NCBI GenBank assembly: GCA_965219535.1
Contig: CBDCNV010000002.1
Location: 1,170,001-1,202,000 of the forward strand
DNA length: 32,000 bases
Direction: 5' to 3'
Origin: Opitutales bacterium
GTDB lineage: Bacteria > Verrucomicrobiota > Verrucomicrobiia > Opitutales > PNEW01
Part shown: one piece after another, positions 5,206 to 28,842 of the stretch
Layout of the letters: each line of letters starts with the position of its first letter
Numbering within the stretch: position 1 is the stretch's first letter
The notes under the pieces: model-generated
Told to the model about the DNA's origin: nothing
The model's input: the letters and a program-made list of their open reading frames with translations, nothing else
The model's database searches: none
Translations under genes and position numbers: made by a program

Positions 5206-5327
5206 AATAATAATGGCCGTTAGTGAAAACTAGGAATGCTACCATGAATGTGCAACTAGAATTATTAGTAAACAGCCGCCGACGCTCCTCTTTAGCGTGC
5301 CAAGGTGATCAGTGAGTAGTGAGAGAA

Positions 5328-5357
5328 GGTTCAATGGTTGATGGTTCAAGGTTCAGG
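5328..5357. repeat. GGTTCA word stutter (ggttcaatggttgatggttcaaggttcagg), G-orientation arm
   Basis: Read directly. It is the opposite orientation of the array at 5503..5551 in the same spacer. Confidence 0.8.
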
Positions 5358-5502
5358 AGTTAGGAGGACGATAGATAGAAGTGAACAGATAGTGGGAGAG
5401 GGGTGTCGGGTGTCGGGATAGAAGTGAACCCTTCGATTTCCTCAGGTCAGGCAGTGAACAGTGGATGGTTGAAATGAATGATGAATAATTTATAATTCTT
5501 AG

Positions 5503-5551
5503 CTGAACCCTGAACCCTGAACCCTGAACCCTGAACCCTGAACCCTGAACC
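5503..5551. repeat. Perfect tandem heptamer array (CTGAACC)x7
   Basis: Units start at 5503, 5510, 5517, 5524, 5531, 5538 and 5545. The complement is (GGGTTCA)n. Confidence 0.97.
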
Positions 5552-5583
5552 CTGTACCGAGAGCGTAGCTCGACACTTCCACC
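5552..5583 (-). repeat. GGCTAYG-core motif copy (reverse complement ggtggaagtgtcgagctacgctctcggtacag)
   Basis: Near-identical to 5599..5630, 6407..6441 and 21332..21366. Confidence 0.9.
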
Positions 5584-5598
5584 TACAACCCTTGAACC

Positions 5599-5630
5599 GT
5601 GTACCGAGGCGTAGCCCGACATCTTCCACC
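5599..5630 (-). repeat. GGCTAYG-core motif copy (reverse complement ggtggaagatgtcgggctacgcctcggtacac)
   Basis: Second tandem copy, embedded between TGAACC words. Confidence 0.9.
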
Positions 5631-5728
5631 ACTGAACCCGGAACCATTTTAAGGAACATTTCGCGTTTGATATTATTAAATCATCTGTCTAAGTTCAGCG
5701 AAAGTTTTAGACGAAGATCATTTTTATA

Positions 5729-6397
5729 ATGACAGCATTTCAACTCAATAAACCGACACATATTTTCATCGTAGTCTCACTGGTTTTCATGGGAATTTGT
5801 AGACTGGCTATTGCAGAGAATAAAAGGACGACTGAAGCTGAGGCATTTTTATCAGGTATCTTGGATGAAACCCTAAAGATATTAAAAGATGAAGATTTAT
5901 CAGGGGAGGATAAACGGACTTTACTTGCAGATAATATAAACGCGAACCTCGACTTGGCGTACATGTCTTCAAGGGCACTTGGTCCAAGTAAGGAGGGTTT
6001 TACCAAGGAACAGTTTGCTGAATTCTCACATGAATTTTCGCGTCATCTGACTCATTTTTATTTAAGAAGGATGGCGACCTTCAAGGGAGACAAGATTGAA
6101 ATTACTGGTGTGGATTTCAACGAGAAGAGTGGGGTAGTAAAATTGCGAACCTCTGGAGGAGTCCGACACACCATGTTTCAATCCCGTCGATCATCACATA
6201 TCGCTAATGTGGATTACCACCTACGAAAGAAAAACGTTGAATGGCGAATTGTCGCAATCACCATAGATGGTGTTAACGTCAGCCGAAATTTCCGCAAACA
6301 ATTCAAAGCACTGCTGGATAAAGAGAACCCCGATGCATTAATTGAAAAATTAAGAATGATGAATGCAGAAAACGAAGAGCGGAAGCTGTTTGAATAG
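5729..6397 (+). CDS. MlaC/Ttg2D-like periplasmic lipid-binding protein (orphan, no mlaFEDB neighbours)
   Basis: The 222-aa ORF has an N-terminal hydrophobic signal. Its C-terminal part, VDYHLRKKNVEWRIVAITIDGVNVSRNFRKQFKALLDKENPDALIEKL, matches the PF05494 signature (W-k-i-x-D-v-x-i-e-G-V-S-l...yr-x-qF). Confidence 0.7.
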   Translation: MTAFQLNKPTHIFIVVSLVFMGICRLAIAENKRTTEAEAFLSGILDETLKILKDEDLSGEDKRTLLADNINANLDLAYMSSRALGPSKEGFTKEQFAEFSHEFSRHLTHFYLRRMATFKGDKIEITGVDFNEKSGVVKLRTSGGVRHTMFQSRRSSHIANVDYHLRKKNVEWRIVAITIDGVNVSRNFRKQFKALLDKENPDALIEKLRMMNAENEERKLFE

Positions 6398-6406
6398 AGG
6401 GTTCAG

Positions 6407-6441
6407 GGTGGAAGATGTCGGGCTACGCTCTCGGTACAGGG
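6407..6441 (+). repeat. GGCTAYG-core motif copy (ggtggaagatgtcgggctacgctctcggtacaggg)
   Basis: Lies 10 nt after the MlaC-like stop codon. It is inverted relative to the copies at 5552..5630 on the other side of the gene. Confidence 0.92.
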
Positions 6442-7263: not shown

Positions 7264-7557
7264 ATGAAAAGAAAAAGATACACAACAGAACAGATTATAA
7301 CAATATTGCGGCAAGCCGATACCGGTAAAACGGTACAGGAAATCTGCCGTGGAAACAACCTGAGCGAACAGACTTTCTATCGCTGGCGTAAAAAATATGG
7401 CAATTTAGAACTTGCCGATGCGAAGCGATTTAAAGAGCTGGAAAAAGAATTCACGAGCGCAAGCGAGAAGGCCTGACATACCGAGCTGAAGAAGCTGCTC
7501 GCAGATCAAATGCTCAAGAATCAGGTAATGGAGGAAACGCTGTCAAAAAAATGGTGA
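7264..7557 (+). pseudogene. IS3 orfA (HTH transposase subunit) interrupted by an in-frame TGA at 7474..7476
   Basis: The N-terminus is MKRKRYTTEQIITILRQADTGKTVQEICRGNNLSEQTFYRWRKKYG... After the TGA the same frame continues HTELKKLLADQMLKNQVMEETLSKKW*, the leucine-zipper tail expected for orfA. Confidence 0.8.
7545..7551 (+). promoter_or_regulatory. Programmed -1 ribosomal frameshift heptamer A_AAA_AAA linking orfA to orfB
   Basis: Seven A residues sit in the X_XXY_YYZ register of orfA (codons TCA AAA AAA TGG TGA). A -1 slip reads on as ...LSKKMVSPKQKKRVV into orfB. This is the standard IS3 arrangement. Confidence 0.8.
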
Positions 7558-8474
7558 GCCCAAAGCAGAAGAAACGAGTAGTAAAAGCTGCGGCTGAGAA
7601 AGGGTTGTGCTCGTTGCGGAGGGCTTGTGCTTATCTCAGCCTGAGTTGGTCAACGTTCAGTTACCGGCCCAAACAGGCCAGTGAGAAAGCTCAGCGGTTG
7701 GTCGAGCGGATTGTGAGCTTGTCCTGGAAACATCCCCGCTACGGTTACCGGCGCATCCGTGCCTTGCTGGTAAAGGAAGGCTGGACAACAAGCAGGAAGT
7801 TTGTCCAGGCGGTACGACGTTCAGAAGGGCTGCAGGTAAAGCCCCCGAAAAAGGGCAGACACCGTCAAGGAGTCTCTACGGGGTCACCTACTAAAGCAAA
7901 GGGTCGCAATCACGTTTGGTCCTGGGACTTTGTCCATGATCGTACAGACAACGGCGGTCCATTAAAGATGATGACTCTAATCGATGAATATACGCGTAAA
8001 TGCCTGGATATCCGGGTCGCTCGTCAACTCACCTCAACCGATGTCCTCTCTGTGCTTAGCGAGGCCATTGAAGAGGAGGGACCTCCCAGCTATATCCGTA
8101 GTGACAACGGCAGTGAGTTCATTGCTCATCAAGTGCAGCAGTGGTTGTCCGGTAATAACATAAAGGCGATCTATATCGATCCGGGCAGTCCCTGGCAAAA
8201 CGGTTTCATCGAGTCGTTTCACAACCGCTTACGCGATGAGTGTTTGAACCGTGAAGTGTTGCTCAGCGTGGCTGAAGCGCAAGTGGTAATCGAACAATGG
8301 CGTCAGACCTATAACCATGAACATCCCCACAGTCGTTTAGGCTTCAAAAGCCCACAAGAGTTTGTCAGATTCCTTTCCGATCTTGGCCGCGTTCGGGCTA
8401 CGCCCTCACTTCGCCAAGATCTCTCATATACATCAATCCTAAAACCATTAACACCCGGTAACTCTCTCACTTAA
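7551..8474 (+). CDS. IS3 orfB, DDE (rve) transposase catalytic domain
   Basis: Motifs seen are WSWDFVHD...LIDEYTRKCL, IRSDNGSEFIA, and PGSPWQNGFIESFHNRLRDECLN...YNHEHPHSRLGFKSPQEF. Confidence 0.92.
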   Translation: MVSPKQKKRVVKAAAEKGLCSLRRACAYLSLSWSTFSYRPKQASEKAQRLVERIVSLSWKHPRYGYRRIRALLVKEGWTTSRKFVQAVRRSEGLQVKPPKKGRHRQGVSTGSPTKAKGRNHVWSWDFVHDRTDNGGPLKMMTLIDEYTRKCLDIRVARQLTSTDVLSVLSEAIEEEGPPSYIRSDNGSEFIAHQVQQWLSGNNIKAIYIDPGSPWQNGFIESFHNRLRDECLNREVLLSVAEAQVVIEQWRQTYNHEHPHSRLGFKSPQEFVRFLSDLGRVRATPSLRQDLSYTSILKPLTPGNSLT

Positions 8475-8687: not shown

Positions 8688-8711
8688 ATCTAATGATGTT
8701 CGATGTTAGAT

Positions 8712-8735
8712 GTTTTAAAACGACATCGCATGTCG
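8712..8735 (-). terminator. Putative intrinsic terminator of the four-helix-bundle gene
   Basis: On the minus strand the sequence is CGACAT-gcg-ATGTCG (6-bp stem) followed by TTTTAAAAC, about 27 nt after the stop at 8762. Confidence 0.5.
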
Positions 8736-8761: not shown

Positions 8762-9115
8762 TTATGCATCATCTAGTGTTTGGGACATTTTAACAAATAT
8801 GCTCACTATCTGATTAGCTTCATCGAGTACTGATTGTACAATGAAATTATCCCTAAAGCCTTTCTTTTTGTTAATTACTCGCAAACATACATGGCTCTCA
8901 CGAGCTTCTTTGAGAACTACTTTGATTTTATGCTTAAAATCTTTTCTTGATTCCGCTCCTTGTGCTTCCGCGTAGTTCAATGCCATAGAAGAAGAAGATC
9001 TTATCAGTTGTCCACCAAGATGCTTACCAGCTGGTGAACTGGGCAATTTTTCAGCCAAATCTATAGCTGAAACGGTAAAATCAATAAGCTTTTGTTCGAG
9101 TTTATTATTATCCAT
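8762..9115 (-). CDS. Four-helix-bundle protein (23S rRNA intervening-sequence protein family, TIGR02436/PF05635-like)
   Basis: The 117-aa ORF contains LGGQLIRSSSSMALNYAEAQGAESRKDFKHKIKVVLKEARESHVCLRVI, matching the family signature Q-l-x-R-s-x-x-S-i-x-x-N-x-a-E-g...kdf...a-x-x-S-x-x-E. Confidence 0.85.
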   Translation of the reverse strand: MDNNKLEQKLIDFTVSAIDLAEKLPSSPAGKHLGGQLIRSSSSMALNYAEAQGAESRKDFKHKIKVVLKEARESHVCLRVINKKKGFRDNFIVQSVLDEANQIVSIFVKMSQTLDDA

Positions 9116-9230: not shown

Positions 9231-9340
9231 AATGATGTAAAACGAATGATGTCAGATGTCCGATGTCAGATGTTTGATGTTTGAGGTGTATGAACAACAT
9301 CCTACATCGCACATCTCACATCAAAGATCGCACATCGAAC
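9231..9340. repeat. Imperfect long palindrome made of a GATGT-word array (9231..9288) and an ACATC-word array (9298..9340)
   Basis: The left arm is aatgatgtaaaacgaatgatgtcagatgtccgatgtcagatgtttgatgtttgaggtg. The right arm is acatcctacatcgcacatctcacatcaaagatcgcacatcgaac. More GATGT words lie at 8695..8714 on the other side of the 4HB gene. Confidence 0.85.
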
Positions 9341-11662: not shown

Positions 11663-11800
11663 CCGCAGTCGGCTGATAGCCTCCCTCGCAATGACAATTG
11701 AGACAATGACGAAGACGGTGATTCATTTGATCAGCCCTGTAAGGGCGATACAATCTTAGCCCATTGCGTCAGCAATGGGTAATAGAGGCGCTCAATTCCC

Positions 11801-12142: not shown

Positions 12143-12961
12143 ATGAATCTAGAAAACATGCAGGAAGAGCGCCCGGAATGGATTAACTACCATGAAGGGA
12201 ATTTTGAAATCAAAGATTCGAAGATTATATTGCGGTCTTCCCAGTCAGGGCCTCCGGCTATCGCTAAACTTGCTTATGCGGGATGTTCTACGGGTAATAA
12301 AATTTTCAATCCGGGACTGAAGGGGACTAATAGTATTGAGGCCACCCTCTTAGACTATGGCGCTGAAGGCAATTATCTTGTCAAAGAGGGGAAGATTATG
12401 GAGTTCGAAGATCCCAGTGGTAAGAGCTTTCGCTCAGTTGCCGGTAACTATCAAAGGGGGTGGGGGATTTCGATTTCCAACTACCATTACCTTGTTACTT
12501 CTAAAAAAGAAACCGATCGCGGGGTGCAGGTTCATTTTGACTGGTGGGAAAATCTTGGGCTGACTTTTTGGATGGTTCGTGATGTCTTACCTGAAGACAG
12601 AGAGAAATATCCCAGTTGGGTGCCCCATAGACAAACCCCGGAGGAGGTATTTGAAATGGGAAAGAAGGGTCCCGTTATTACCCCAGTTGTGAACAAGCTT
12701 GGCATGCGCTGGTTCCCTCCCACCGATAAGATGAAGACACCTGTCGGGCATCGCTACGGACTCGTTTTAACGGACGATGGTAATACGGTCTACTGGACAC
12801 TGGACGGAAACGAGATGGATCGGGCGGATATTACTGGTTTTTTCAGTTCTTATCCGGATGCCGTTAAGGATGGTGCATTTGCAACGATGGGGGGGAATGG
12901 TTCTTATGAACGAAATCACTGGATCGCCGGGGATGTAAGCATTCGTCGTAGTACTTCTTAA
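12143..12961 (+). CDS. Hypothetical protein (272 aa; possibly a beta-sandwich/jelly-roll fold, unassigned)
   Basis: A long ORF with coding-like composition and no signal peptide. I do not recognise a family motif. Confidence 0.6.
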   Translation: MNLENMQEERPEWINYHEGNFEIKDSKIILRSSQSGPPAIAKLAYAGCSTGNKIFNPGLKGTNSIEATLLDYGAEGNYLVKEGKIMEFEDPSGKSFRSVAGNYQRGWGISISNYHYLVTSKKETDRGVQVHFDWWENLGLTFWMVRDVLPEDREKYPSWVPHRQTPEEVFEMGKKGPVITPVVNKLGMRWFPPTDKMKTPVGHRYGLVLTDDGNTVYWTLDGNEMDRADITGFFSSYPDAVKDGAFATMGGNGSYERNHWIAGDVSIRRSTS

Positions 12962-15462: not shown

Positions 15463-18246
15463 ATGGAATTAAAAGCTAGTTACCTATCGCATTTATTTCT
15501 ATTAACGCTTCTCGTCATCGGCAGCCCGCTCACGCTCATCGCCAAAAAGGCCTGGGTGCATGGTGGCTATGAAGATTTTTCCCAGGGCTGGTTTGAAAAT
15601 GGAGGAGCTAACCTTTACGTGAATGCGAACGGGGTCATCGAGATGATCAATAATTTCGATGTCAACAACGATGGCTATGCGGATATCATCCTGGCCAATG
15701 CGCACGGAAAAACAGAGTGGGGGCCCACCCATGTATTCACCGTCGATGAGGGGCCATCGGATCAGTGGAAACGTGAGCAAATGTTTGTCGGCAGTTACTG
15801 TTTATGGATGAGCCGGATTATCGATCTGGATGAAGATGGATACATGGATCTAGTTACCGCCAATTCCTATAATGAAGTCACTTGTGAAGTGCCTTCATAT
15901 ATATACTGGGGTGGACCGAACGGGCTGGGGGTAAATCGCTCTGACTTGCCAACGATCGGCGCCTATGATTTCGCGGTTTACGATATCAATCGTGATGGGC
16001 GATTGGATATCGTCTATTCCTCCGCGTGGAAAGACCCGCACAACCCTGGCATGCCATTGTTGGCTCAGGTCTATCTTCAACAGGAAGATCGTCAATTTGA
16101 ATTCGCAACCGAGTATTATAATTTGTGGGGGATGGCAGCAACATCGGTTGATATCGCCGACTTGAATGATGACGGCTATGGCGATCTCGTTTTGGCCAAT
16201 TTAAGACGCGAATATGATACAAGCATAGATTCGGTCCTATACTGGGGTACAGCGGAAGGATTCGATACGAAGACACCCCATTATTTGCCAACCAGTGGGG
16301 TAAGACAGGTTGTCCTGGAAGACCTCAATGGAGATGGTGATAAAGATATCATCTTCAGCTGCCGGGGGCACGCGTGTATCTATTGGAACGAAAATGGGAA
16401 GTTCAATTCAAACGAACCCTTACACGTAGAAGTAATGAGGAAAGCTGGAGAAGAGGGTAGATCAAGAAGCCAATTATACATCACTTTTGCCGATGTTGAT
16501 GGTGATGAGGTAAAGGATATGATTATGGCCACCAATAACGGTGTAGAAATACACTCGGTAGACGATTTGCATACCGTGAAAACAACTCTCGCTGTTGAAA
16601 ATGCAAGATGGATTACAGTTTCTGACCTCAATGGTGATAAGCTACCGGAACTCGTTGTCAGTAAGTTCCACGGTGATGTGATGTATGAATCTGAATCACC
16701 CGTATTCTGGAATAGCCCTTCAGGTTTCTCTGAAAACAACGTCAGTTGGATTTCCACTGAAGGGGCGATAGGCAATACAGTCGGGGATCTGAACGGCGAT
16801 GGTCAAAGTGAAGTAATTTTCCATAATCACATGAGTGGTCCCGTGACGACAACGCCTTCTTATATCTATTATGGTAATAAAGAGGCAAAGTACGGACCGG
16901 AAAATCGTCTTGAACTCCAGACTGATCACGGGGTTGTCGCGATTGTAAGTGACTTGGATCTCGATGGATATCCGGAAACTATTTTTACCGCCAAAAAGGG
17001 AATTCAGATCTACGAGGGAACGCCGGAGGGGCCGATACCGGGCCAATTTTCTATTCTGCCCACCGCCAATCCGCCCAACTTTGATCTCGATGTAGCCGAC
17101 TTCAACCGGGACGGGTATCTCGATCTACTGGCGGTGGAACGAGGTGAAATGATTATGAAGAAAGATCATAAACCCTCGACGATTTTTTACGGTTCGAAGG
17201 ACGGGTATTCTGAAGACAATATTGATCGTCTCGATAATTATGGAAATTACTCCACCCTTGGAGATGTAAACAATGACGGTCATCTCGATATCCTTTTTCA
17301 TGATAAATGGAACTATCTTTTAATTTTTCTCGGTAGCGATGACGGCTACTCTGAAGATCATACTTGGAAGGTCCCTTGTGATACGATCTATGATTCAGCC
17401 ATGCCTTACCTGGCGGATCTGAATAAAGACGGCTGGTTGGATATTGTCGTATCAAAATTCCCGACACGGATGCGTTTTCGAGATACGATGGAAGTCTTTT
17501 ATGGCAGTCCCCAGGGTTACCTTCCTGAAAATACACAACAACTCGAAGCCGGGTATACGACAAAGGCGATTGGCGTTGCTGATTATAATAAAGATGGGAA
17601 TCTGGATATCGCGGCCACCGTTTATTACAGCGACAGTGTCAACGCCGTCCATCGGTCTTTCCCCACCCTGATTTTTTATGGTGATGGGACAAAACTCGAT
17701 TTTGAAAATCCGGATAGACTTCATACTTACGGTGCCAATGCCATCATGCAGCTGGATTTAAACCGCGATGGCTGGTCGGATATTGTATTGGGAAATCACC
17801 GCAATGATATTACACACCAGGTAGATTCACTCATTTACTGGAATAGTCCGGAAGGCTTTTCCATTACGAGGCGAACCGGCATTCCAGGTTTGGGACCGCA
17901 TGGGATGTACAAGCGTGATCACGGCAATGCTTTTACGCGTAAACCGGAAGAAAATTATATCTCACCTCCCTATGAAATGGGGAAAAGAAAGGTGAATGCC
18001 ATTAAATGGATAAGTGAAGAAACCGATCTTTTGAAAATTAAATTCCAGTTGAGAGAAAGTGAAACACAAGCGGGACTGGATGATGCCGCATGGATGGGGC
18101 CCGAGGGTGAGGAGTCATATTATGAGACTTCCGGTGAATCTATAGTGAGTCTGCAAAAAAATTCCCGATGGTTACAGTACAAAGCAACATTCATTTCCCT
18201 TTACGGATGCGGTTCGCCCAAGCTCAAGGAAGTGAGGATTGAATGA
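15463..18246 (+). CDS. Secreted FG-GAP/VCBS-repeat protein (about 14 repeats, consistent with two 7-bladed beta-propellers)
   Basis: It has a signal peptide (LSHLFLLTLLVIGSPLTLIAKKA). Fourteen D-x-[ND]-x-D-G-x-x-D-[ILV] motifs occur, including DVNNDGYADIILAN, DLDEDGYMDLVTAN, DINRDGRLDIVYSS, DLNDDGYGDLVLAN, DYNKDGNLDIAATV and DLNRDGWSDIVLGN. Confidence 0.9.
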   Translation: MELKASYLSHLFLLTLLVIGSPLTLIAKKAWVHGGYEDFSQGWFENGGANLYVNANGVIEMINNFDVNNDGYADIILANAHGKTEWGPTHVFTVDEGPSDQWKREQMFVGSYCLWMSRIIDLDEDGYMDLVTANSYNEVTCEVPSYIYWGGPNGLGVNRSDLPTIGAYDFAVYDINRDGRLDIVYSSAWKDPHNPGMPLLAQVYLQQEDRQFEFATEYYNLWGMAATSVDIADLNDDGYGDLVLANLRREYDTSIDSVLYWGTAEGFDTKTPHYLPTSGVRQVVLEDLNGDGDKDIIFSCRGHACIYWNENGKFNSNEPLHVEVMRKAGEEGRSRSQLYITFADVDGDEVKDMIMATNNGVEIHSVDDLHTVKTTLAVENARWITVSDLNGDKLPELVVSKFHGDVMYESESPVFWNSPSGFSENNVSWISTEGAIGNTVGDLNGDGQSEVIFHNHMSGPVTTTPSYIYYGNKEAKYGPENRLELQTDHGVVAIVSDLDLDGYPETIFTAKKGIQIYEGTPEGPIPGQFSILPTANPPNFDLDVADFNRDGYLDLLAVERGEMIMKKDHKPSTIFYGSKDGYSEDNIDRLDNYGNYSTLGDVNNDGHLDILFHDKWNYLLIFLGSDDGYSEDHTWKVPCDTIYDSAMPYLADLNKDGWLDIVVSKFPTRMRFRDTMEVFYGSPQGYLPENTQQLEAGYTTKAIGVADYNKDGNLDIAATVYYSDSVNAVHRSFPTLIFYGDGTKLDFENPDRLHTYGANAIMQLDLNRDGWSDIVLGNHRNDITHQVDSLIYWNSPEGFSITRRTGIPGLGPHGMYKRDHGNAFTRKPEENYISPPYEMGKRKVNAIKWISEETDLLKIKFQLRESETQAGLDDAAWMGPEGEESYYETSGESIVSLQKNSRWLQYKATFISLYGCGSPKLKEVRIE

Positions 18247-18408
18247 GGTCAAAAAGCCAAAAAGCCATTTCCATTGTTGATTTTCGATTGCGGATTGCGG
18301 ATTGAAATAGGATGCAAGATGCAGGATACTGAAAGTAAGAAAATCTTAGCGACTTCCGCATTCACGCTTGTTCGCTTTATCGTATTTCCCTTTTAGACCT
18401 TTTGACTC
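18247..18408. repeat. Spacer bounded by inverted word arms, with other word stutters inside
   Basis: The arms are ggtcaaaaagccaaaaagcc (18247..18266) and ccttttagaccttttgactc (18389..18408). Inside are cgattgcggattgcggattg (18285..18304) and ggatgcaagatgcaggat (18310..18327). The string aggatgcaagat recurs at 24645..24656. Confidence 0.8.
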
Positions 18409-20107: not shown

Positions 20108-20112
20108 GTGGG

Positions 20113-20253
20113 GTCAAAAGGTCAAAAGGTCAAAAAGTCAAAAAGTTTAGGGTTTCTTTAATGACCATTGGAACACAGTGCCCGCCAACGTATTCTCTCT
20201 TTTACTTAAAGACGCATTTCCCTTTTGACCTTTTGACTTTTTGACCTTTTGAC
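20113..20253. repeat. (GTCAAAAG)x4 at 20113..20144 and (CTTTTGAC)x4 at 20222..20253: a 32-nt inverted repeat (about 30/32) around a 77-nt loop
   Basis: Read directly. The left arm starts 5 nt after the SDR stop codon. The right arm ends 8 nt before the dipeptidase ATG (20262). Confidence 0.95.
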
Positions 20254-20261
20254 TAGATTCA

Positions 20262-21284
20262 ATGCCCAACCCAACACCAGCTAATGAAGTCTACGATGAA
20301 GCCATTGTAATCGATGCGCTTAATGTGAGTAATTGGAAGAGTTCCGCCGTCTATGAGAGTCTGGTCGCAAGCGGTACTACTGCGATAAATGCGACCCTCG
20401 TGACGTGGGAAAATTTTCAACAGACCCTGGATTACATCACTGACTGGCAAGACATTTTCAACGAGCGCAGTGCACAAATCATTCAAGTCAACAGCGTTGA
20501 TGACATCCTGAAAGCAAAGCAGGACGGTAAAGTCGGTGTTATTCTGGGATGGCAGAATGCGACCCCGATTGAAAACGATTTGCGGCGCATCGAACTGTTT
20601 CGCTCCCTCGGTGTGCTCATCATGCAACTCACTTTTCACGAGAGAAATTTTATTGGCAATGGTTGTTTGGAACGCGGTGATGCCGGCCTCAGCAACTTTG
20701 GTATCGACGCAGTGCATGAGATGAACCGAATGGGTATATTGATTGATCTTTCGCACTGCGGTGAAAGAACAACGATCGATGCAATTGAAATATCGAGCAA
20801 ACCAGTTGCATGCACGCACGCCAATGCACAGAGCTTCCACATGCACCCACGAAATAAAACGGATGAAGCACTGAAGCTACTGGCGGAACGTGGGGGCGTG
20901 GTTGGCGCGACTGCATTCAATATGTTTCTACCAGCTGGCCGCGAATCCACGATTGAGAATTTCGTTGATGCGATTGATGACCTCGTTCAACGAATCGGAG
21001 TTGAACACGTGGGGTTCGGAACGGACTTTACACAGGATCAGCCACAGGAATTCTGGAATTACATCGGCGCGCAGCAGGGGACAAAACTCCCCTCCACTTT
21101 CTACGACGCACCTGAAGGCTATGCAGATTTAGCGCATGCGCCCAAAGGACTGGAAATACCGGATAAGATGCCCGCCCTCGCCGATTCACTCCTAGCTAGG
21201 GGATACAAGCCAGCCGACATCACCCTTATCCTGGGCGGAAACTGGCTGCGACTCTTCCGTGAAGTGTGGACTTGTGAAGAGTGA
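20262..21284 (+). CDS. Membrane (renal-type) dipeptidase family, peptidase M19
   Basis: Motifs seen are VIDALN, GVILGWQNATPIENDLRRIELFRSLGVLIMQLTFHERNFIGNG, GILIDLSHCGERTTIDAI, ACTHANAQ and FGTDFT. Confidence 0.85.
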   Translation: MPNPTPANEVYDEAIVIDALNVSNWKSSAVYESLVASGTTAINATLVTWENFQQTLDYITDWQDIFNERSAQIIQVNSVDDILKAKQDGKVGVILGWQNATPIENDLRRIELFRSLGVLIMQLTFHERNFIGNGCLERGDAGLSNFGIDAVHEMNRMGILIDLSHCGERTTIDAIEISSKPVACTHANAQSFHMHPRNKTDEALKLLAERGGVVGATAFNMFLPAGRESTIENFVDAIDDLVQRIGVEHVGFGTDFTQDQPQEFWNYIGAQQGTKLPSTFYDAPEGYADLAHAPKGLEIPDKMPALADSLLARGYKPADITLILGGNWLRLFREVWTCEE

Positions 21285-21331
21285 GAAAGCCTGAAAACCG
21301 GAAGACCTGGTGTTCAGAGTCAAGGTTTCAG

Positions 21332-21366
21332 GGTGGAAGATGTCGGGCTACGCCCTCGGTACAGGG
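21332..21366 (+). repeat. GGCTAYG-core motif copy (ggtggaagatgtcgggctacgccctcggtacaggg)
   Basis: It contains the 15-mer tcgggctacgccctc (21343..21357), which is identical to 8393..8407 and 8577..8591 inside the IS3 copies. Confidence 0.92.
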
Positions 21367-21458
21367 TTCAGGGTTCAGGAAAAATGCCGATAGTTAGATG
21401 TGAACAGTGAACAGTAAACAGTGAGAAAGGGTTCAGAGTTCGGGGTTCAGGGTTCAGG
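21364..21458. repeat. G-orientation word block: gggttcagggttcagg, (GTGAACAG)x3, agggttcagagttcggggttcagggttcagg
   Basis: The sub-arrays lie at 21364..21379, 21400..21425 and 21429..21458. Confidence 0.9.
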
Positions 21459-21491
21459 AAAACTTGAATAGAACCCACCGTAACATTCTTG

Positions 21492-21899
21492 CTATTCGCG
21501 TATGATTTCGGGCCAACGGTGATCACGTTCAGGAAGATGCTTTTCCAAAGTCCGTTCCATTCCATTCAGCATTCGGATACATACTTGATAGCGTCTGCTA
21601 TATTCTTCGTAAGTAGGTCTGCTTTCGTATCCTTTTAAATGGGCCATGTATACGTGGTGCACGGTCTCGGCGGCTTCGCCACGACTTCGATTCACTCCCT
21701 CTATCTTATTTCTAATATGACGATCATCGTATTTCTCAGCCAACTGAGCTGCTGCACTGTTTGAAGATCGTCTCGCTTGGGATCCGAGCTCATACTTCTC
21801 CTCTGTTGGCCACAAGTGAGTTAAGTTACAGACACTTATATGCAATTCGCAAAGTTTCTGGTATACAATCAAATCCTCTAAGCGCTTATATGCACTCAT
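21492..21899 (-). CDS. Four-helix-bundle protein (23S rRNA intervening-sequence protein family), second copy
   Basis: The 135-aa ORF contains LIVYQKLCELHISVCNLTHLWPTEEKYELGSQARRSSNSAAAQLAE...RGEAAETVHHV, which fits the same family signature. It is strongly diverged from the copy at 8762..9115. Confidence 0.75.
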   Translation of the reverse strand: MSAYKRLEDLIVYQKLCELHISVCNLTHLWPTEEKYELGSQARRSSNSAAAQLAEKYDDRHIRNKIEGVNRSRGEAAETVHHVYMAHLKGYESRPTYEEYSRRYQVCIRMLNGMERTLEKHLPERDHRWPEIIRE

Positions 21900-21980
21900 C
21901 CCTCTTATCCAACACTCGACCGTTCATCCACGACTCACTGATTTTTATTTACTTTTCATATCTAAATATCGTCATTTTTT

Positions 21981-22017
21981 CTGAACCCTGAACCCTGAAC
22001 CCCGAACTCCGAACCCT
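21981..22017. repeat. C-orientation array ctgaaccctgaaccctgaaccccgaactccgaaccct
   Basis: It is inverted relative to 21429..21458, and the arms include the adjacent A/T runs (gggttcagggttcaggaaaa versus ttttttctgaaccctgaaccc). Confidence 0.92.
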
Positions 22018-22023
22018 CTCTCA

Positions 22024-24603
22024 CTACTCCTTCCTCGCGAGCATGGAATAAATCGTCAGTCCCTCGAGAGACTTTTTTCGCTCGGGTATAAATAGGCTGG
22101 ACAGATAGCCAACGACAAAACAGGTGATGAATCCGATAGATGAGTAGAGGAGAAAGTGTATCGGTGTTTCAAATTTCACAAAATAAAGGACTATCGCACT
22201 GGTAATCGCACCGACTAAGGCACCAATACCATTCGCACGTCGTGTAAAAATACCCAGGGCAAATAGTCCGCCCAATCCGCTGATAAACAATCCGGCGATA
22301 GCGGTAGCAAACAACGCGGCATTATGAATATCAAAAGTAACCAGAGAGAGGGCGATAACGGTGACAATGAGACCGATAACTAAGGTAACCGAGCGAGCCA
22401 GATACAAATAGAGACGATCGGGTTTCTTAGGTTTGAAGCGTCGGTAAAAATCCGTGACAAAGACTGTGGCCACCGAGTTCATCCCGCTGTCAAGACTCGA
22501 CATCGCGGCGGAAAAGATGGCTGCAATGACAAAACCGGCAAGCCCGAAGGGAAGATTTTGTGCGATGAAGAGAGGAAAAATCGCGTCATTCTGCATTCCC
22601 ATGCTGACTGTGGCTGGGTGCGTTTTATAATAGGCGTAGAGGGCGGAACCCATTCCATAAAATAAAAAACCGATGGGAATACCAATTATAGCATTTAACC
22701 ATATCCCTTTCGCGGCCGTTTTTTCGTCCTTCGTCGTAAGATACCTTTGGATCGTGGTTTGCTCGGTGGATGGTCCCAAAAAGGCACCAAAAGCACTACT
22801 AATTAATAACACCCATAGGACGGGCGCAGTAAAGTCCCACTCCAGATACAACATGCGGTATTTATCATCAGCCAAACCTATATCGATTATTCCCTTATAA
22901 CCATTATCGATATGAAAAGGAATAACGATGAGGGCAATAATGATACCGATAAAAAATACAATGACCTGTAAAACATCCGACCATACGACCGCTTCGATAC
23001 CACCCAACACGGTGTAAAAGGTGCTGATTAATCCCATAAAGAGAATACATATGTAGATATTAATCCCCGCGATGGTGGAGAGAACAACTGCCGGCAGATA
23101 AAGAATAATACTGATCCTGATTAATTGATAAATTATGAATTGTACACTCCCGTATAAGCGAACAGGCAGATTAAATCGTTTCTCCAGGTATTCATAAGCG
23201 GTAGTAACATTAAGCCTTCGGTAAAACGGCAGGAAAAAATAGATAACAATTATAGGAGCAAAGATTAACCCAATCCTTCCGGGAAATAGGAACCAGTCTG
23301 TGGCGTAAGCCAATGCGGGATAGGAAATATAAGTTAGGGCGCTAAGTCCGGTTCCCAGAATACTGAGCCCTGCCGCCCACCAGGGGATGCGATGACCGGC
23401 GAGAAAATAATCTTTTGTCCCTTTCTCCCGCCTGGAAAAATAAAAACCCATATAGACAAGCGCCACCATATACAGTAGGAGAAAAGAATAATTTATGATT
23501 CCAAACGATGCATTCGCTCCCGCATCATGAATCATTATTTGAACCTTAGGGGTCATTATCCCGGGTTCTGTCTCTCCACCGGTAATGGCGATCCCTCCTT
23601 CCCATAACACCGCTTCAGAAGACACTACCCCTAATGGTAATTCACCTTTTACCAACCAGGTATCAGTGACCGTGTGATAGACGAGAAGATCGCGTGAATA
23701 GCTGGGATGATCCTTACTTGAATTCACATCCTCGTGCTTCCAGGTATTGCCTCCAAAGATAAGAATATGTGATTGTCCATAGGCAACTCCAGGGGCCCCG
23801 GTTACGGGGTGGGGGGCGTCGGCGATAGGTTCCCAATTTTCATAACGAAGGGAATAGCGGTAGCCGTCGGTCAATTGCCTGCTTTGAATCTCACCATTTT
23901 CATTCTGAATCCTTTCTTCACCGCCAATGATGTATACAAATCTGCCATTACCAATATTCTGGCCTATAACGATGGCCCTTCTCCTCGCCGGGCCCTCCCA
24001 GGGGACTAACGATTTCCAACCCGCATCTAAATTGTTCAGATCAAGTGACCAAAAATTCTTCGTCAGACTCATTTTGTCTCGCTCCAACTGGCCACCAACC
24101 ACGTATACGACACCATTAATTTCAGCGGCGCCGATTAAAGAAAGTGACTGTGGAAGAGGCGGCAGGGACACTTGATTAATTATCCGAGAAGATGCATTCC
24201 ACGTTAACTGGATCACCTCGTTCTGATTGCCCTCAGCATTGCTCCCCCCAATTAAGATCAAACTATCATCGCTAGTTACGGAAGCACCTAAAGCGATCGG
24301 TTCATTCAGTTTATAGCCCGTTAACCACTTTTTCTCTCTATTATTTGGGAGTATGTAGATGTCGTCATACCAAGTTCTGTTTCGGATCATCAATTCCATT
24401 CCATGCGGGAAATTCGAACCCCCAGCGACAATGAGAGCGCCATTGCTGACCCCGGTAAATGCTCCACCCAGACCGAGCTTGTTAGGCAATTCGGGAAGTT
24501 CACTCCAACTAATGGCTTCTTGCTGCGGCGCTGCGCTTTCACTGTGCCCTGCTATGCAAATCAAGGCAGCAAAGCATAACAAGATAACACAGGGATGTTT
24601 CAT
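22024..24603 (-). CDS. Fusion protein: N-terminal secreted Kelch/NanM-like (sialic-acid-mutarotase-type) beta-propeller plus C-terminal sodium:solute symporter (SSS, PF00474-like)
   Basis: The preferred start is ATG 24603, giving MKHPCVILLCFAALICIAGHSES (signal peptide). The track start at 24639 is a GTG inside the GGTTCAG repeat. The propeller shows GGAFTGVSNGALIVAGGSNFP and repeated ...GG blades over about 340 aa. About 13 TM helices follow, with the SSS signature TVLGGIEAVVWSDVLQ. Confidence 0.85.
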   Translation of the reverse strand: MKHPCVILLCFAALICIAGHSESAAPQQEAISWSELPELPNKLGLGGAFTGVSNGALIVAGGSNFPHGMELMIRNRTWYDDIYILPNNREKKWLTGYKLNEPIALGASVTSDDSLILIGGSNAEGNQNEVIQLTWNASSRIINQVSLPPLPQSLSLIGAAEINGVVYVVGGQLERDKMSLTKNFWSLDLNNLDAGWKSLVPWEGPARRRAIVIGQNIGNGRFVYIIGGEERIQNENGEIQSRQLTDGYRYSLRYENWEPIADAPHPVTGAPGVAYGQSHILIFGGNTWKHEDVNSSKDHPSYSRDLLVYHTVTDTWLVKGELPLGVVSSEAVLWEGGIAITGGETEPGIMTPKVQIMIHDAGANASFGIINYSFLLLYMVALVYMGFYFSRREKGTKDYFLAGHRIPWWAAGLSILGTGLSALTYISYPALAYATDWFLFPGRIGLIFAPIIVIYFFLPFYRRLNVTTAYEYLEKRFNLPVRLYGSVQFIIYQLIRISIILYLPAVVLSTIAGINIYICILFMGLISTFYTVLGGIEAVVWSDVLQVIVFFIGIIIALIVIPFHIDNGYKGIIDIGLADDKYRMLYLEWDFTAPVLWVLLISSAFGAFLGPSTEQTTIQRYLTTKDEKTAAKGIWLNAIIGIPIGFLFYGMGSALYAYYKTHPATVSMGMQNDAIFPLFIAQNLPFGLAGFVIAAIFSAAMSSLDSGMNSVATVFVTDFYRRFKPKKPDRLYLYLARSVTLVIGLIVTVIALSLVTFDIHNAALFATAIAGLFISGLGGLFALGIFTRRANGIGALVGAITSAIVLYFVKFETPIHFLLYSSIGFITCFVVGYLSSLFIPERKKSLEGLTIYSMLARKE

Positions 24604-24617
24604 CGAACAGAGAGAGA

Positions 24618-24647
24618 GGGTTCTGGGTTCAGGGTTCACGGTTCAGG
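24618..24647. repeat. G-orientation array gggttctgggttcagggttcacggttcagg
   Basis: It lies immediately upstream of the symporter start codon and is inverted relative to 21981..22017 at the gene's 3' end. Confidence 0.9.
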
Positions 24648-28773: not shown

Positions 28774-28805
28774 GTCAAAAGGTCAAAAAGTCAAAAGGTC
28801 AAAAG
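28774..28805. repeat. (GTCAAAAG)x4 array
   Basis: It starts 13 nt after the YeiH-like TAA stop. Confidence 0.95.
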
Positions 28806-28842
28806 GTTAAGGGTTCCCTTCGACTCAGCTCAGGACCTCTAG

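Follow-up and report, generated by a model that had tools for sequence, protein, structure and literature searches.

Intervening sequences (IVS) that encode an S23p protein are known from the 23S rRNA of Leptospira, Coxiella burnetii, Xanthomonas, and Brucella (PMC4990558 and work cited there). In Coxiella, RNase III cuts a 28-bp terminal inverted-repeat stem that encloses the S23p open reading frame (ORF), which is preceded by variable GACAGAT heptamers (PMC4990558). Avd belongs to the same family and is a pentamer, all five protomers of which bind an RNA stem-loop; the avd coding RNA pairs, at its 3′ end, with RNA downstream (bioRxiv 10.1101/2023.10.23.563531). Intergenic heptamer arrays form another body of literature. 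GGGAATC heptamers of Xanthomonas make up 70–75 convergent inverted pairs, and the excess of heptamer simple sequence repeats (SSRs) has been explained by slippage of the polymerase (PMC4692102); Beggiatoaceae carry intergenic arrays of TAACTGA (PMC4679880). No associated gene is reported in these two papers, and the terms "S23" and "four helix" are absent from the text of both. A literature search that took in few subscription journals found no paper that connects PF05635, S23p, or "four helix bundle protein" with heptamer or STRR repeats. We know of no role for PF05635/TIGR02436 proteins outside diversity-generating retroelements (DGRs).

Here we analyzed a window of 32,000 nucleotides from an Opitutales bacterium, whose numbering is used unless another genome is named. 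The minus-strand gene at 21492–21899 encodes a 135-residue four-helix-bundle (4HB) protein of the PF05635/TIGR02436 family (S23p, 23S_rRNA_IVP). The product scored 72.5 bits against PF05635 (cut-off 33.8; residues 8–113 on profile positions 1–106) and 70.3 bits against TIGR02436 (cut-off 24), and profile searches returned no other family for it. The profile of alignment A1 matched the pentameric PDB structures 2gsc and 2rld (E about 4e-4); an AlphaFold model from the same alignment was all-helical, at low confidence (pLDDT 46). Relatives of the two families numbered in the thousands among the search results. With dN/dS of 0.06–0.17 and pS of about 0.89 (synonymous sites saturated), codon comparisons show strong purifying selection on the protein.

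A preliminary description of this DNA had placed the gene between oppositely oriented heptamer arrays whose proximal arms, adjoining A/T runs included, are almost exact inverted repeats; both the positions and the enclosure were borne out. TRF reported GGTTCAG ×3.1 at 21358–21379, AGGGTTC ×4.4 at 21428–21458, and CTGAACC ×5.3 at 21981–22017, together with an unrelated GTGAACA ×3.6 array at 21400–21424. The best inverted repeat joins 21420–21458 to 21987–22025 (39 nt, 95% complementary, GGGTTCA units). Another (21431–21462 with 21976–22007; 32 nt, 88%) takes in the A/T runs, and an outer one pairs 21358–21425 with 21934–22001 (68 nt, 84%). The best pair reaches 9 nt past the heptamers (GTGAGAgAG/CTtTCTCAC), and a rare GAGTTCG unit occupies the mirrored position in its two arms; the arms are therefore genuine inverted copies of each other and not two arrays of separate origin.

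Read in the sense of the gene, the 5′ arm (21981–22025, minus strand), delimited by TRF, the inverted repeats, and the sequence itself, consists of GTGAGAGAG followed by five GGGTTCR units and an A-run. The upstream neighbor, co-directional with the 4HB gene, is a host gene for a Kelch/NANM and SSF sodium:solute symporter protein (22024–24606, minus strand; ORF list and Pfam matches of orthologs). Its TAG stop lies at 22024–22026; the 5′ arm starts 9 nt later, and the inverted-repeat extension of the arm overlaps that stop. An 81-nt leader (21900–21980, minus strand; defined by alignment A3 and a promoter scan) leads from the arm to the ATG, and its arm-proximal motif AAAAAATGACGATATTTAGATATG is kept in paralogous and orthologous cassettes as well as in gene-less derivatives. 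The ORF stops at a premature TAG specific to its lineage. Behind it, a former C-terminal tail (21447–21491, minus strand), recognized from alignment A1, the locus ends, and the sequence, is still in frame as QECYGGFYSSFPEP followed by TGA. In most homologs the ORF continues to this TGA, which falls within unit 1 of the 3′ array, and the tails in alignment A1 end in GFPEP or FPEP* (TTTCCTGAACCCTGA). Judged from these alignments, the 3′ arm encodes the ancestral C terminus and stop codon in most homologs. Here the 3′ arm (21420–21458, minus strand), identified by TRF and the 39-nt repeat, mirrors the 5′ arm and reads CC, four TGAACCC units, and CTTTCTCAC.

Further parts of the locus lie on the plus strand. 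The 68-nt repeat revealed what looks like the relic of a second cassette end at 21358–21425, made of two GGGTTCA units, AAAAATGCCGATAGTTAGATG, and the GTGAACA ×3.6 array; AAAAATGCCGATAGTTAGATG is the start of the leader in inverted copy. Sequence matches to this relic occur at the 5′ end of a further 4HB paralog (L003, 18970–19218) and at the M19-side junction of an inverted ortholog in the related genome L008. At 21323–21363, a 47-nt period and sequence comparison delimit a 33-nt module, GGTGGAAGATGTCGGGCTACGCCCTCGGTAC, between GGGTTCA units. The module is a dispersed composite repeat with further copies at 5550–5630 and 6398–6441, and it belongs to the cassette arms at L003 site 2 and L008 site 1. 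The convergent host gene (20262–21284, plus strand) encodes a Peptidase_M19 dipeptidase according to the gene tables. The S23p/IVS identity of the family, the coding of the ancestral C terminus and stop by the 3′ arm, and the dispersal of the arrays through many other spacers go beyond the preliminary description.

The resulting layout is a G-type heptamer array, a short leader with a Shine-Dalgarno (SD) sequence, the 4HB ORF, and a C-type heptamer array over the ancestral stop. We think it somewhat probable that 21420–22025 constitutes a self-contained S23p/4HB gene cassette, kin to the ORF-bearing IVS of 23S rRNA and situated in an mRNA spacer. The S23p-encoding 23S rRNA IVS is the closest known system. 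As in the IVS, a PF05635 ORF occupies the loop of a terminal inverted-repeat stem (a predicted 43 bp here) and is preceded by tandem heptamers, which vary in copy number among strains in the IVS (GACAGAT in Coxiella). Both lie inside a host transcription unit with no evident promoter of their own, occur sporadically with apparent horizontal spread, and share a length of about 430–760 nt. In contrast to the IVS, which are inserted in helix 25 or 45, the cassette sits in the mRNA spacer behind the symporter gene, and its arms are the heptamer arrays themselves. In Coxiella the ORF is in decay and probably goes untranslated, whereas the ORF here is under strong constraint. Excision by RNase III, demonstrated for the IVS, is for this cassette a homology-based lead, because the gene belongs to the S23p/IVS protein family.

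A second, very diverged 4HB subfamily (B) likewise lies inside mirrored period-7 arms, with GAWTWWN units, and takes in the other 4HB copy of the window (8762–9115). The two window proteins are as diverged as had been claimed (37% identity over 43 amino acids). The accompanying claim that both genes sit in the loop of a word-array hairpin holds as regards the inverted arms around 21492–21899; it is looser for 8762–9115, since each flank of that gene has its own local GATGT/ACATC hairpin. The preliminary description had also argued that the same architecture around such diverged copies is no coincidence and had called for a genome-wide check of whether 4HB genes are enriched in array-flanked spacers. 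Our survey of homologous loci agrees with the argument. It covered 75 non-redundant loci, found by homology to the query in genomes labeled as several phyla, with 369 ORFs of the same loci as controls; neighboring ORFs were called mechanically, and the taxon labels of the metagenome-assembled genomes (MAGs) may be wrong. The inverted flank score exceeded the direct score in 67 of the 75 loci and was at least 30 for 60 of 75 homologs versus 8 of 369 control ORFs (Mann-Whitney p = 1e-33). A blind scan took in 1,806 ORFs and picked out 114 flanked by inverted repeats; 89 of these were 4HB genes.

Locus by locus, the 5′ arm ends 5–40 nt before the ATG, running into AGGAG, and the 3′ arm lies over the stop. 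Unit order is mirrored between the arms beyond a null in which the alignment was re-optimized for every unit shuffle (2537 versus 2247 ± 30; 2080 versus 1496 ± 36), and the inner-unit type is the same in both arms at 34 of 67 loci (15 ± 3 expected). The best autocorrelation period was 7 in 50 of 51 arms for A and in 36 of 39 for B, and the period-7 motif is retained although synonymous sites are saturated. By these comparisons, the arms are mirrored repeats inherited together with the 4HB gene, and their sequence type goes with the protein clade. Outside rRNA too, as far as sequence can tell, the S23p gene, the inverted repeat around it, and the period-7 repeats make up one conserved package, represented by two subfamilies at about 140 independent loci.

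The expectation that a transcript of the gene would begin and end with complementary segments agrees with RNA folding. Sense RNA from 22035 to 21410 is predicted to close in a terminal stem of roughly 43 bp (MFE −205 kcal/mol versus −161 ± 6 for shuffles; z = −6.9). That one transcript spans both arms, as had been assumed, is plausible. A scan for the sigma-70 consensus alone found no promoter-like site between the 5′ arm and the ATG, the symporter gene is co-directional, and a same-strand ORF ends upstream of 55 of the 75 family genes, at a median of 74 nt (opposite strand in 13). Given this usual spacing of about 74 nt, which leaves no room for a promoter, a transcript with both arms is probable; in this lineage 81 nt separate the 5′ arm from the ATG, so that an unrecognized internal promoter could leave that arm out of the mRNA. 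Mismatches between the arms showed no excess of G·U over A·C (31:49 for A; 61:50 for B) and were mostly transversions. RNA pairing is therefore not visibly under selection, an outcome that neither favors nor rules out an RNA stem. Among close relatives, units are gained or lost in one arm independently of the other, which counts against the RNA-duplex model.

Under the cassette reading, we propose the following course of events. Read-through from the symporter gene would transcribe the cassette, and the two arms would pair as a duplex of about 40 bp and so seal the 4HB message off. By analogy with IVS elements, host RNase III may cut this duplex; the cut would release the 4HB mRNA or limit it, uncoupling it from the host transcript. 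Period-7 arrays would allow pairing in more than one register despite the fast gain and loss of units. The arms may also be recognized sequence-specifically, most plausibly by the encoded protein, putatively a nucleic-acid-binding pentamer; such recognition is suggested by the retention of the heptamer motif at a distance where synonymous sites are saturated.

Another reading, which we consider rather unlikely, holds that the cassette is an element acting at the DNA level. The arms would be terminal inverted repeats or recombination substrates, recombination between arrays would move, flip, and homogenize the 4HB gene, exchanging cassettes into spacers that bear arrays, and RNA pairing would be incidental. 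The behavior documented directly is of this kind: in-place inversion between the arms and conversion between copies. A 555-bp segment (21443–21997) is inverted in place in L008, with collinear flanks, so that the cassette there is co-directional with the Peptidase_M19 gene; mosaic gene conversion has occurred between paralogous cassettes 9 kb apart. A second cassette with the same arms and leader occupies another spacer (a paralogous site), a gene-less derivative at 5320–5560 retains arms and leader, and the GGGTTCA arrays found at 7 places in 32 kb are possible landing sites. Proteins 65–81% identical occur in genomes labeled as several phyla, and some homologs are labeled Kiritimatiellia. 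The lack of G·U bias in the arms also fits, and DNA recombination between the arms could by itself maintain the mirrored unit order. Against this reading, gene tables list no transposase or recombinase in or beside the cassette (±10 kb) and no dedicated site-specific recombinase near 21443–21997; the only recombinase-type gene listed is an IS3-family transposase at 7551–8474. Site comparisons gave no evident target-site duplication at the arm ends, and no relatives were found in viral contigs. The inversion was seen between related genomes only, fixed between species rather than segregating within a population. Moreover, a purely DNA-level role does not predict the tight, co-directional position behind an ORF or arms that hug the SD and stop codon. 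The cassette thus resembles MITEs and invertible segments in its terminal inverted repeats, gene-less derivative, multiple copies, and inversion between genomes, but differs in its period-7 array arms and in having neither a detected target-site duplication nor a transposase or invertase nearby.

RAYTs are REP-associated tyrosine transposases of the HUH/Y1 (IS200-like) type, and REP repeats are GTAG-headed palindromes. As in REP/REPIN-RAYT systems, the 4HB gene has a short repeat on either side, in opposite orientations, this repeat is also scattered through intergenic spacers, and gene clade and repeat family go together. Unlike them, it encodes a four-helix bundle instead of an HUH/Y1 transposase, its repeats are tandem heptamers instead of GTAG-headed palindromes, and we know of no mobilization activity for it. 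A RAYT flanked by repeats was found in L055. It is conceivable, but in our judgment unlikely, that the 4HB gene and its repeats form a comparable partnership, in which the pentamer binds its own heptamer family, the arrays around the gene serve autoregulation, and the dispersed arrays are targets of the pentamer or owe their spread or upkeep to it. The period-7 motif kept at saturated divergence is consistent with this proposal. So is the unit type, which goes with protein clade and not with host label; units differ among the paralogs of a single genome group (GGGTTCA, GATGTYR, and AARTGAA), and arrays are far more numerous than 4HB genes. RNA binding by all five protomers of Avd (bioRxiv 10.1101/2023.10.23.563531) points the same way. 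However, binding by the 4HB pentamer is putative, shared descent is a confounder of the link between unit type and clade, and no 4HB partner is in sight for the array families GGTCAAAA and ACTTTCG of the window. GGGTTCA arrays also go with the truncated paralog (L003, 18970–19218), and unit and 4HB protein thus do not map strictly one to one. Slippage has also been put forward for the heptamer excess (PMC4692102). Like heptamer SSRs (cyanobacterial STRR/GGGGAYT, Xanthomonas GGGAATC, Beggiatoaceae TAACTGA), the arrays here are few-copy, 7 nt in period, overwhelmingly intergenic, and variable in length among relatives; unlike those SSRs, they bracket a specific gene family.

Such crowding of spacers raises the question of chance. 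Period 7–8 arrays occupy most spacers of the window, gene-less inverted array pairs lie at 20112–20253 and 9247–9340, and an ordinary MlaC-like gene (5729–6397) also stands between inverted dispersed repeats, so a short gene might simply happen to fall between two opposed arrays. We hold this to be very improbable in view of the scores of homologs against controls, the mirrored unit order, and the inverted repeat running into non-array sequence; in addition, the arms accompany the gene to other sites and genomes, and the 3′ array encodes a conserved C terminus and stop.

That the gene is the Avd of a DGR, or the locus a genuine rRNA intervening sequence, we regard as scarcely credible despite the shared Pfam family and a weak bAvd match of the truncated paralog, because Pfam gene tables show no reverse transcriptase and there is no template/variable repeat pair within ±10 kb, an Rfam gathering scan found no rRNA in the window, 174 sequences lack universal rRNA motifs, and 20 subfamily-B loci have no Rfam match. 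The protein shares with Avd its superfamily, that of pentameric, positively charged four-helix-bundle barrels, but is only distantly related in sequence. The Rfam scan also gave a match to Acido-Lenti-1 RNA. Defense-system and phage readings were dropped after PADLOC and PHROGs returned no matches and viral contigs no relatives.

To our knowledge, PF05635/TIGR02436 proteins, rRNA intervening sequences, and intergenic heptamer repeats (STRR, GGGAATC, TAACTGA) have gone unexplained for about 30 years. Finding the same gene and mirror-repeat package in bacteria labeled as several phyla links two long-unexplained features of genomes. Because the package is conserved outside rRNA as well, the rRNA IVS would be a special case of a broader class of cassettes. 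The class gives a way to approach how heptamer arrays arose, and for annotation it explains why ORF callers run genes into arrays (…PEPRTLNPEP tails and heads). It opens testable hypotheses: that RNase III processes cassettes carried in mRNA, that the pentamer binds specific heptamers, and that the arms recombine with each other. A bolder proposal, which we advance as a doubtful one, is that bacterial intergenic heptamer arrays have their missing partners in S23p pentamers, each 4HB clade recognizing its own 7-nt unit and each gene bracketed by its cognate arrays, with dispersed STRR-type arrays, gene-less hairpins, and rRNA IVS stems as targets or offspring. If such a partnership were true, it would be a RAYT/REPIN-like symbiosis of gene and repeat built on a nucleic-acid-binding barrel instead of a transposase.

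The four-helix-bundle (4HB) gene at 21492-21899 on the minus strand had been described as lying between almost exact inverted GGGTTCA/TGAACCC arms, and our analysis bears this out. Tandem Repeats Finder placed period-7 arrays at 21358-21379 (GGTTCAG x3.1), 21400-21424 (GTGAACA x3.6), 21428-21458 (AGGGTTC x4.4) and 21981-22017 (CTGAACC x5.3). Three inverted pairs surround the ORF: 21420-21458 / 21987-22025 (39 nt, 95% complementary), 21431-21462 / 21976-22007 (32 nt, 88%), which takes in the A/T runs of the preliminary description, and 21358-21425 / 21934-22001 (68 nt, 84%). In the 39-nt pair, complementarity extends 9 nt beyond the heptamers (GTGAGAgAG / CTtTCTCAC), and a rare GAGTTCG unit occupies the mirrored position in both arms. 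When the predicted transcript was folded, a check proposed at the outset, the sense RNA from 22035 to 21410 gave a predicted closing stem of ~43 bp and -205 kcal/mol, compared with -161 +/- 6 for shuffles (z = -6.9). The encoded protein matches PF05635, "23S rRNA-intervening sequence protein" (S23p; 72.5 bits, cut-off 33.8), and TIGR02436, "four helix bundle protein"; a profile built from its relatives hit 2gsc (Xanthomonas XCC0516) and 2rld, both pentameric structures. In the window copy, a premature TAG stands 15 codons before the ancestral end, and the old tail remains in frame.

Relatives of the window protein number 1,885 at E<=1e-5; the best 120 are 74-98% identical to it. Most are ~151 aa long and end in GFPEP*, a tail encoded by TTT CCT GAA CCC TGA; the last codons and the stop are therefore supplied by the first unit of the 3' array. 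A search covering one genome for each species gave 225 relatives, from which 80 loci were taken and combined with syntenic loci, yielding 75 non-redundant genes (subfamily A). We scored the best inverted and the best direct match between 160 nt upstream and 220 nt downstream of each gene. The median best score was 43 for inverted and 16 for direct matches, and the inverted score was the higher in 67 of 75 genes (Wilcoxon p = 2e-12). Scores of at least 30 were found for 60/75 4HB genes but only 8/369 other ORFs of the same loci (Mann-Whitney p = 1e-33). A blind scan covered 1,806 ORFs of at least 70 aa from the collected loci, all of which had been gathered by homology to the two window 4HB proteins. 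Inverted-repeat flanks scoring at least 34 were seen for 114; 89 of these were 4HB genes, and most of the others were either spurious ORFs overlapping a 4HB gene or the genes right next to one. Hence chance orientation of arrays is rejected as the cause of the enclosure, in line with the preliminary description.

The upstream arms of subfamily A are arrays of G-K-K-K-T-C-R units (GGGTTCA, GGGGTCA, GGTGTCA, GGTTTCA, GTGTTCA), and the downstream arms are made of their complements; the best autocorrelation period was 7 in 50/51 arms. Typically, 5-40 nt separate the end of the 5' arm from the ATG, and the arm leads into an AGGAG-type Shine-Dalgarno sequence; at several loci complementarity reaches into this purine tract (GGAGGGA / TCTCTCC; GGGAAGAGGG / CCCTCTTCCC). 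Across the family, the 3' arm overlaps the stop codon. Repeat alignments are register-ambiguous. Unit order proved to be mirrored when the 7-nt units of one arm were shuffled and the alignment re-optimized (summed score 2537 observed versus 2247 +/- 30 shuffled). With the arms anchored independently, the innermost unit type was the same in both at 34/67 loci (15 +/- 3 expected). GGGTTCA and GGGGTCA are the units of the window copy's protein clade, in genomes labeled PVC, Desulfobacterales, "delta" and Fermentibacteria; GGTGTCA, GGTTTCA and GTGTTCA belong to a second clade, labeled Desulfobacterota, PVC and Bacteroidota. MAG taxonomy may be wrong, but unit type tracks protein clade, as given by protein clustering, better than host label. 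In one uncultured genome (MFD03804.bin.3.367; loci L085 2986-4050, L079 and L091), two subfamily A genes, both with GGTTTCA arrays, stand in tandem at a distance of ~600 nt; a very high direct-repeat score (89) was seen only at L079. ORF callers run genes into arrays: the symporter ORF "start" MNPEPRTLSL… (24606-24647) is a translated heptamer array, and many 4HB homologs have …PEPRTLNPEP tails for the same reason.

The other window 4HB gene, at 8762-9115, encodes a protein with 37% identity over 43 aa to that of 21492-21899, so the two are indeed highly diverged. With it we found 80 metagenome loci (subfamily B), none within rRNA, of which 65 were scored for flanks. The claim that diverged 4HB copies share one architecture was upheld: 46/65 had an inverted score of at least 30, unit order was mirrored (2080 versus 1496 +/- 36), and the best period was 7 in 36/39 arms. 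These arms consist of heterogeneous heptamers with the consensus G-A-W-T-W-W-N (GAACAAG, GATTAAC, GAATATC). Many subfamily B flanks hold hairpins of their own, and the direct score was at least 30 in 26/65. At 8762-9115, each flank (9247-9340, 8695-8735) forms a local hairpin of GATGTYR and complementary units with a loop of ~10 nt, a layout common in subfamily B (L124 and L151 among the examples). An IS3-family transposase gene (7551-8474; rve, with HTH_Tnp_1 upstream in locus L172) adjoins this cassette, and L172 has extra copies of the element. AARTGAA-type arms surround a third paralog (L003, 15859-16206), from the genome group to which the window belongs.

The window is a stretch of ordinary chromosome, with Kelch/SSF symporter, M19 dipeptidase, SDR, amidohydrolase, FG-GAP protein, PhyH and Mo-co oxidoreductase genes and one IS3 transposase; it contains no rRNA, and its gene tables list no reverse transcriptase. 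It is part of a metagenome contig, and the nearest named homologs come from Kiritimatiellia. Most of the window's spacers are filled by period-7/8 arrays, and GGGTTCA doublets, of which none would be expected by chance, occur at 7 places in 32 kb. The symporter gene (22024-24606, minus strand) is co-directional with the 4HB gene and 125 nt upstream of it; the first heptamer lies 9 nt from the symporter TAG, and a sigma-70 scan found no such promoter within the cassette. Among the 75 loci, with neighboring ORFs called mechanically, a same-strand ORF of at least 100 aa lies upstream in 55, ending a median of 74 nt before the 4HB gene, and the upstream neighbor is on the opposite strand in 13. 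In many loci the array begins a few bases from the upstream stop, leaving no space for a promoter there. Since the symporter and M19 (20262-21284, plus strand) genes converge, a 4HB gene in either orientation in their spacer is co-directional with an upstream gene. The cassette is probably expressed by read-through. Pairwise dN/dS is 0.06-0.17, family-wide the synonymous sites are nearly saturated (median pS 0.89; amino-acid identity 71%), and we take the 4HB protein to be functional.

Other arrays were also seen. A dispersed 33-nt module, GGTGGAAGATGTCGGGCTACGC(C/T)CTCGGTAC (5550-5630, 6398-6441, 21323-21363), holds a GGGC-TAC-GCCC mini-hairpin and is always joined to GGGTTCA units, forming a 47-nt composite repeat. 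Inverted copies of it flank an MlaC-like gene (5729-6397), showing that at least one ordinary gene is likewise enclosed by inverted dispersed repeats, and it is part of the 4HB arms at L003 site 2 and L008 site 1. A gene-less array hairpin (20112-20146 / 20221-20253), GGTCAAAA x4 followed ~75 nt on by CCTTTTGA x4, lies between the SDR gene and the co-directional M19 gene; its 8-mer array is found again at 28774-28810 and 18246-18267, with no partner gene in view. Two small GxxExxY / PDDEXK_3 (PD-(D/E)XK nuclease family) genes (L016 307-678, L043 5388-5777) sit inside short-period arrays in inverted orientation, each with units of its own (CACGGAG-type and GGCACAAAA-type), and make up a second small-gene family in such a niche. 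The Desulfobacteraceae locus L055, which also has a heptamer-flanked 4HB gene, encodes a REP-associated tyrosine transposase (5657-6196; NF047646, 101.6 bits) with long flanking repeats (direct score 130, inverted 35).

Close relatives of the window (L002-L005) have a second copy, with a 93% identical protein, in another spacer 9 kb away, and L008 also has a copy there (85% identical to the window protein). Second-site copies share the arrays, a related leader (…AAAATGCCGATAGATAGAAGTG…) and the 3' end; homology goes no further than the arrays. L008, ~86% identical to the window in flanking genes, carries the orthologous cassette of the symporter/M19 spacer in inverted orientation. L008 is collinear with window 23149-21992 and 21398-20286, but 21997-21443 matches it in reverse (559 nt aligned, 83% identity), with breakpoints within the arms. 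The inverted cassette's arms form a 60-nt near-perfect inverted repeat including the 33-nt module, and we read 21358-21425 as a relic, in the window, of this arrangement. Between L003 sites 1 and 2, identity rises from 80-85% in the 5' half to 95-100% in the 3' half; for the site-2 orthologs of L003 and L008 the pattern is reversed. This mosaic identity indicates gene conversion between paralogous cassettes. Unit counts vary in one arm independently of the other among near-identical relatives. The segment at ~5320-5560 is a gene-less derivative in which a G-type array (AGGTTCA…GGTTCAGG) is followed by the leader remnant CGATAGATAGAAGTGAACAG and then by CTGAACC x8; it has the look of a MITE-like product left after deletion of the 4HB ORF. 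Judged from these comparisons, the cassette is a unit that recombines. The spacer holding the second cassette in L003 and L008 is that of an Acido-Lenti-1 sRNA (RF01687, 42.3 bits, gathering 37; 11733-11779, minus strand); in the window this spacer has, in place of that cassette, long GC-rich palindromes and an additional gene encoding 272 aa (12143-12961).

Because both protein and architecture are homologous to those of 23S rRNA intervening sequences (IVS), we regard the window cassette as a putative IVS-type element residing in an mRNA spacer. Read-through transcription would yield an RNA whose arms pair. A perfect 20-40-bp duplex is an RNase III substrate, and by analogy we infer that cutting of the arms may release the 4HB message or limit it, and detach it from the host mRNA. 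Arm mismatches are mostly transversions and lend no support to an RNA-level step (G·U 31 versus A·C 49 in subfamily A, 61 versus 50 in B). Recombination between the arms could alone keep them mirrored; the L008 inversion and mosaic copies show that such recombination occurs. The persistence of the heptamer motif despite saturated synonymous sites, and its co-variation with protein clade, argue for sequence-specific recognition of the arms rather than mere complementarity. The sole candidate recognizer encoded by the cassette is the 4HB protein. RAYT genes are flanked by their REP repeats, much as the 4HB gene is by its heptamer arms; a comparable gene-repeat partnership here seems to us rather unlikely.

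For the IVS-type reading, the nearest known counterpart is the ORF-bearing IVS, which sits in rRNA, whereas the window cassette lies in an mRNA spacer outside it. In Coxiella burnetii, the S23p ORF occupies the loop of a 28-bp terminal-inverted-repeat stem cut by RNase III and is preceded by 2-3 strain-variable GACAGAT heptamers; IVS as mobile elements is an older idea cited there (PMC4990558). The 4HB relative Avd, an accessory protein of diversity-generating retroelements, is a pentamer in which all five protomers grip an RNA stem-loop (bioRxiv 10.1101/2023.10.23.563531). Intergenic heptamer arrays are described for Xanthomonas (GGGAATC, 70-75 convergent inverted pairs) and Nostoc (GGGGAYT) (PMC4692102), and for Beggiatoaceae, cyanobacteria and Bacteroidetes (TAACTGA; PMC4679880); neither paper mentions S23p or four-helix-bundle genes. 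In full-text searches of mainly openly available papers, we found the 4HB family tied to heptamer arrays only in the Coxiella IVS. The protein family, the rRNA IVS architecture and intergenic heptamer arrays are thus already known; what appears to be new is a widespread IVS-type S23p cassette outside rRNA, with period-7 arms.
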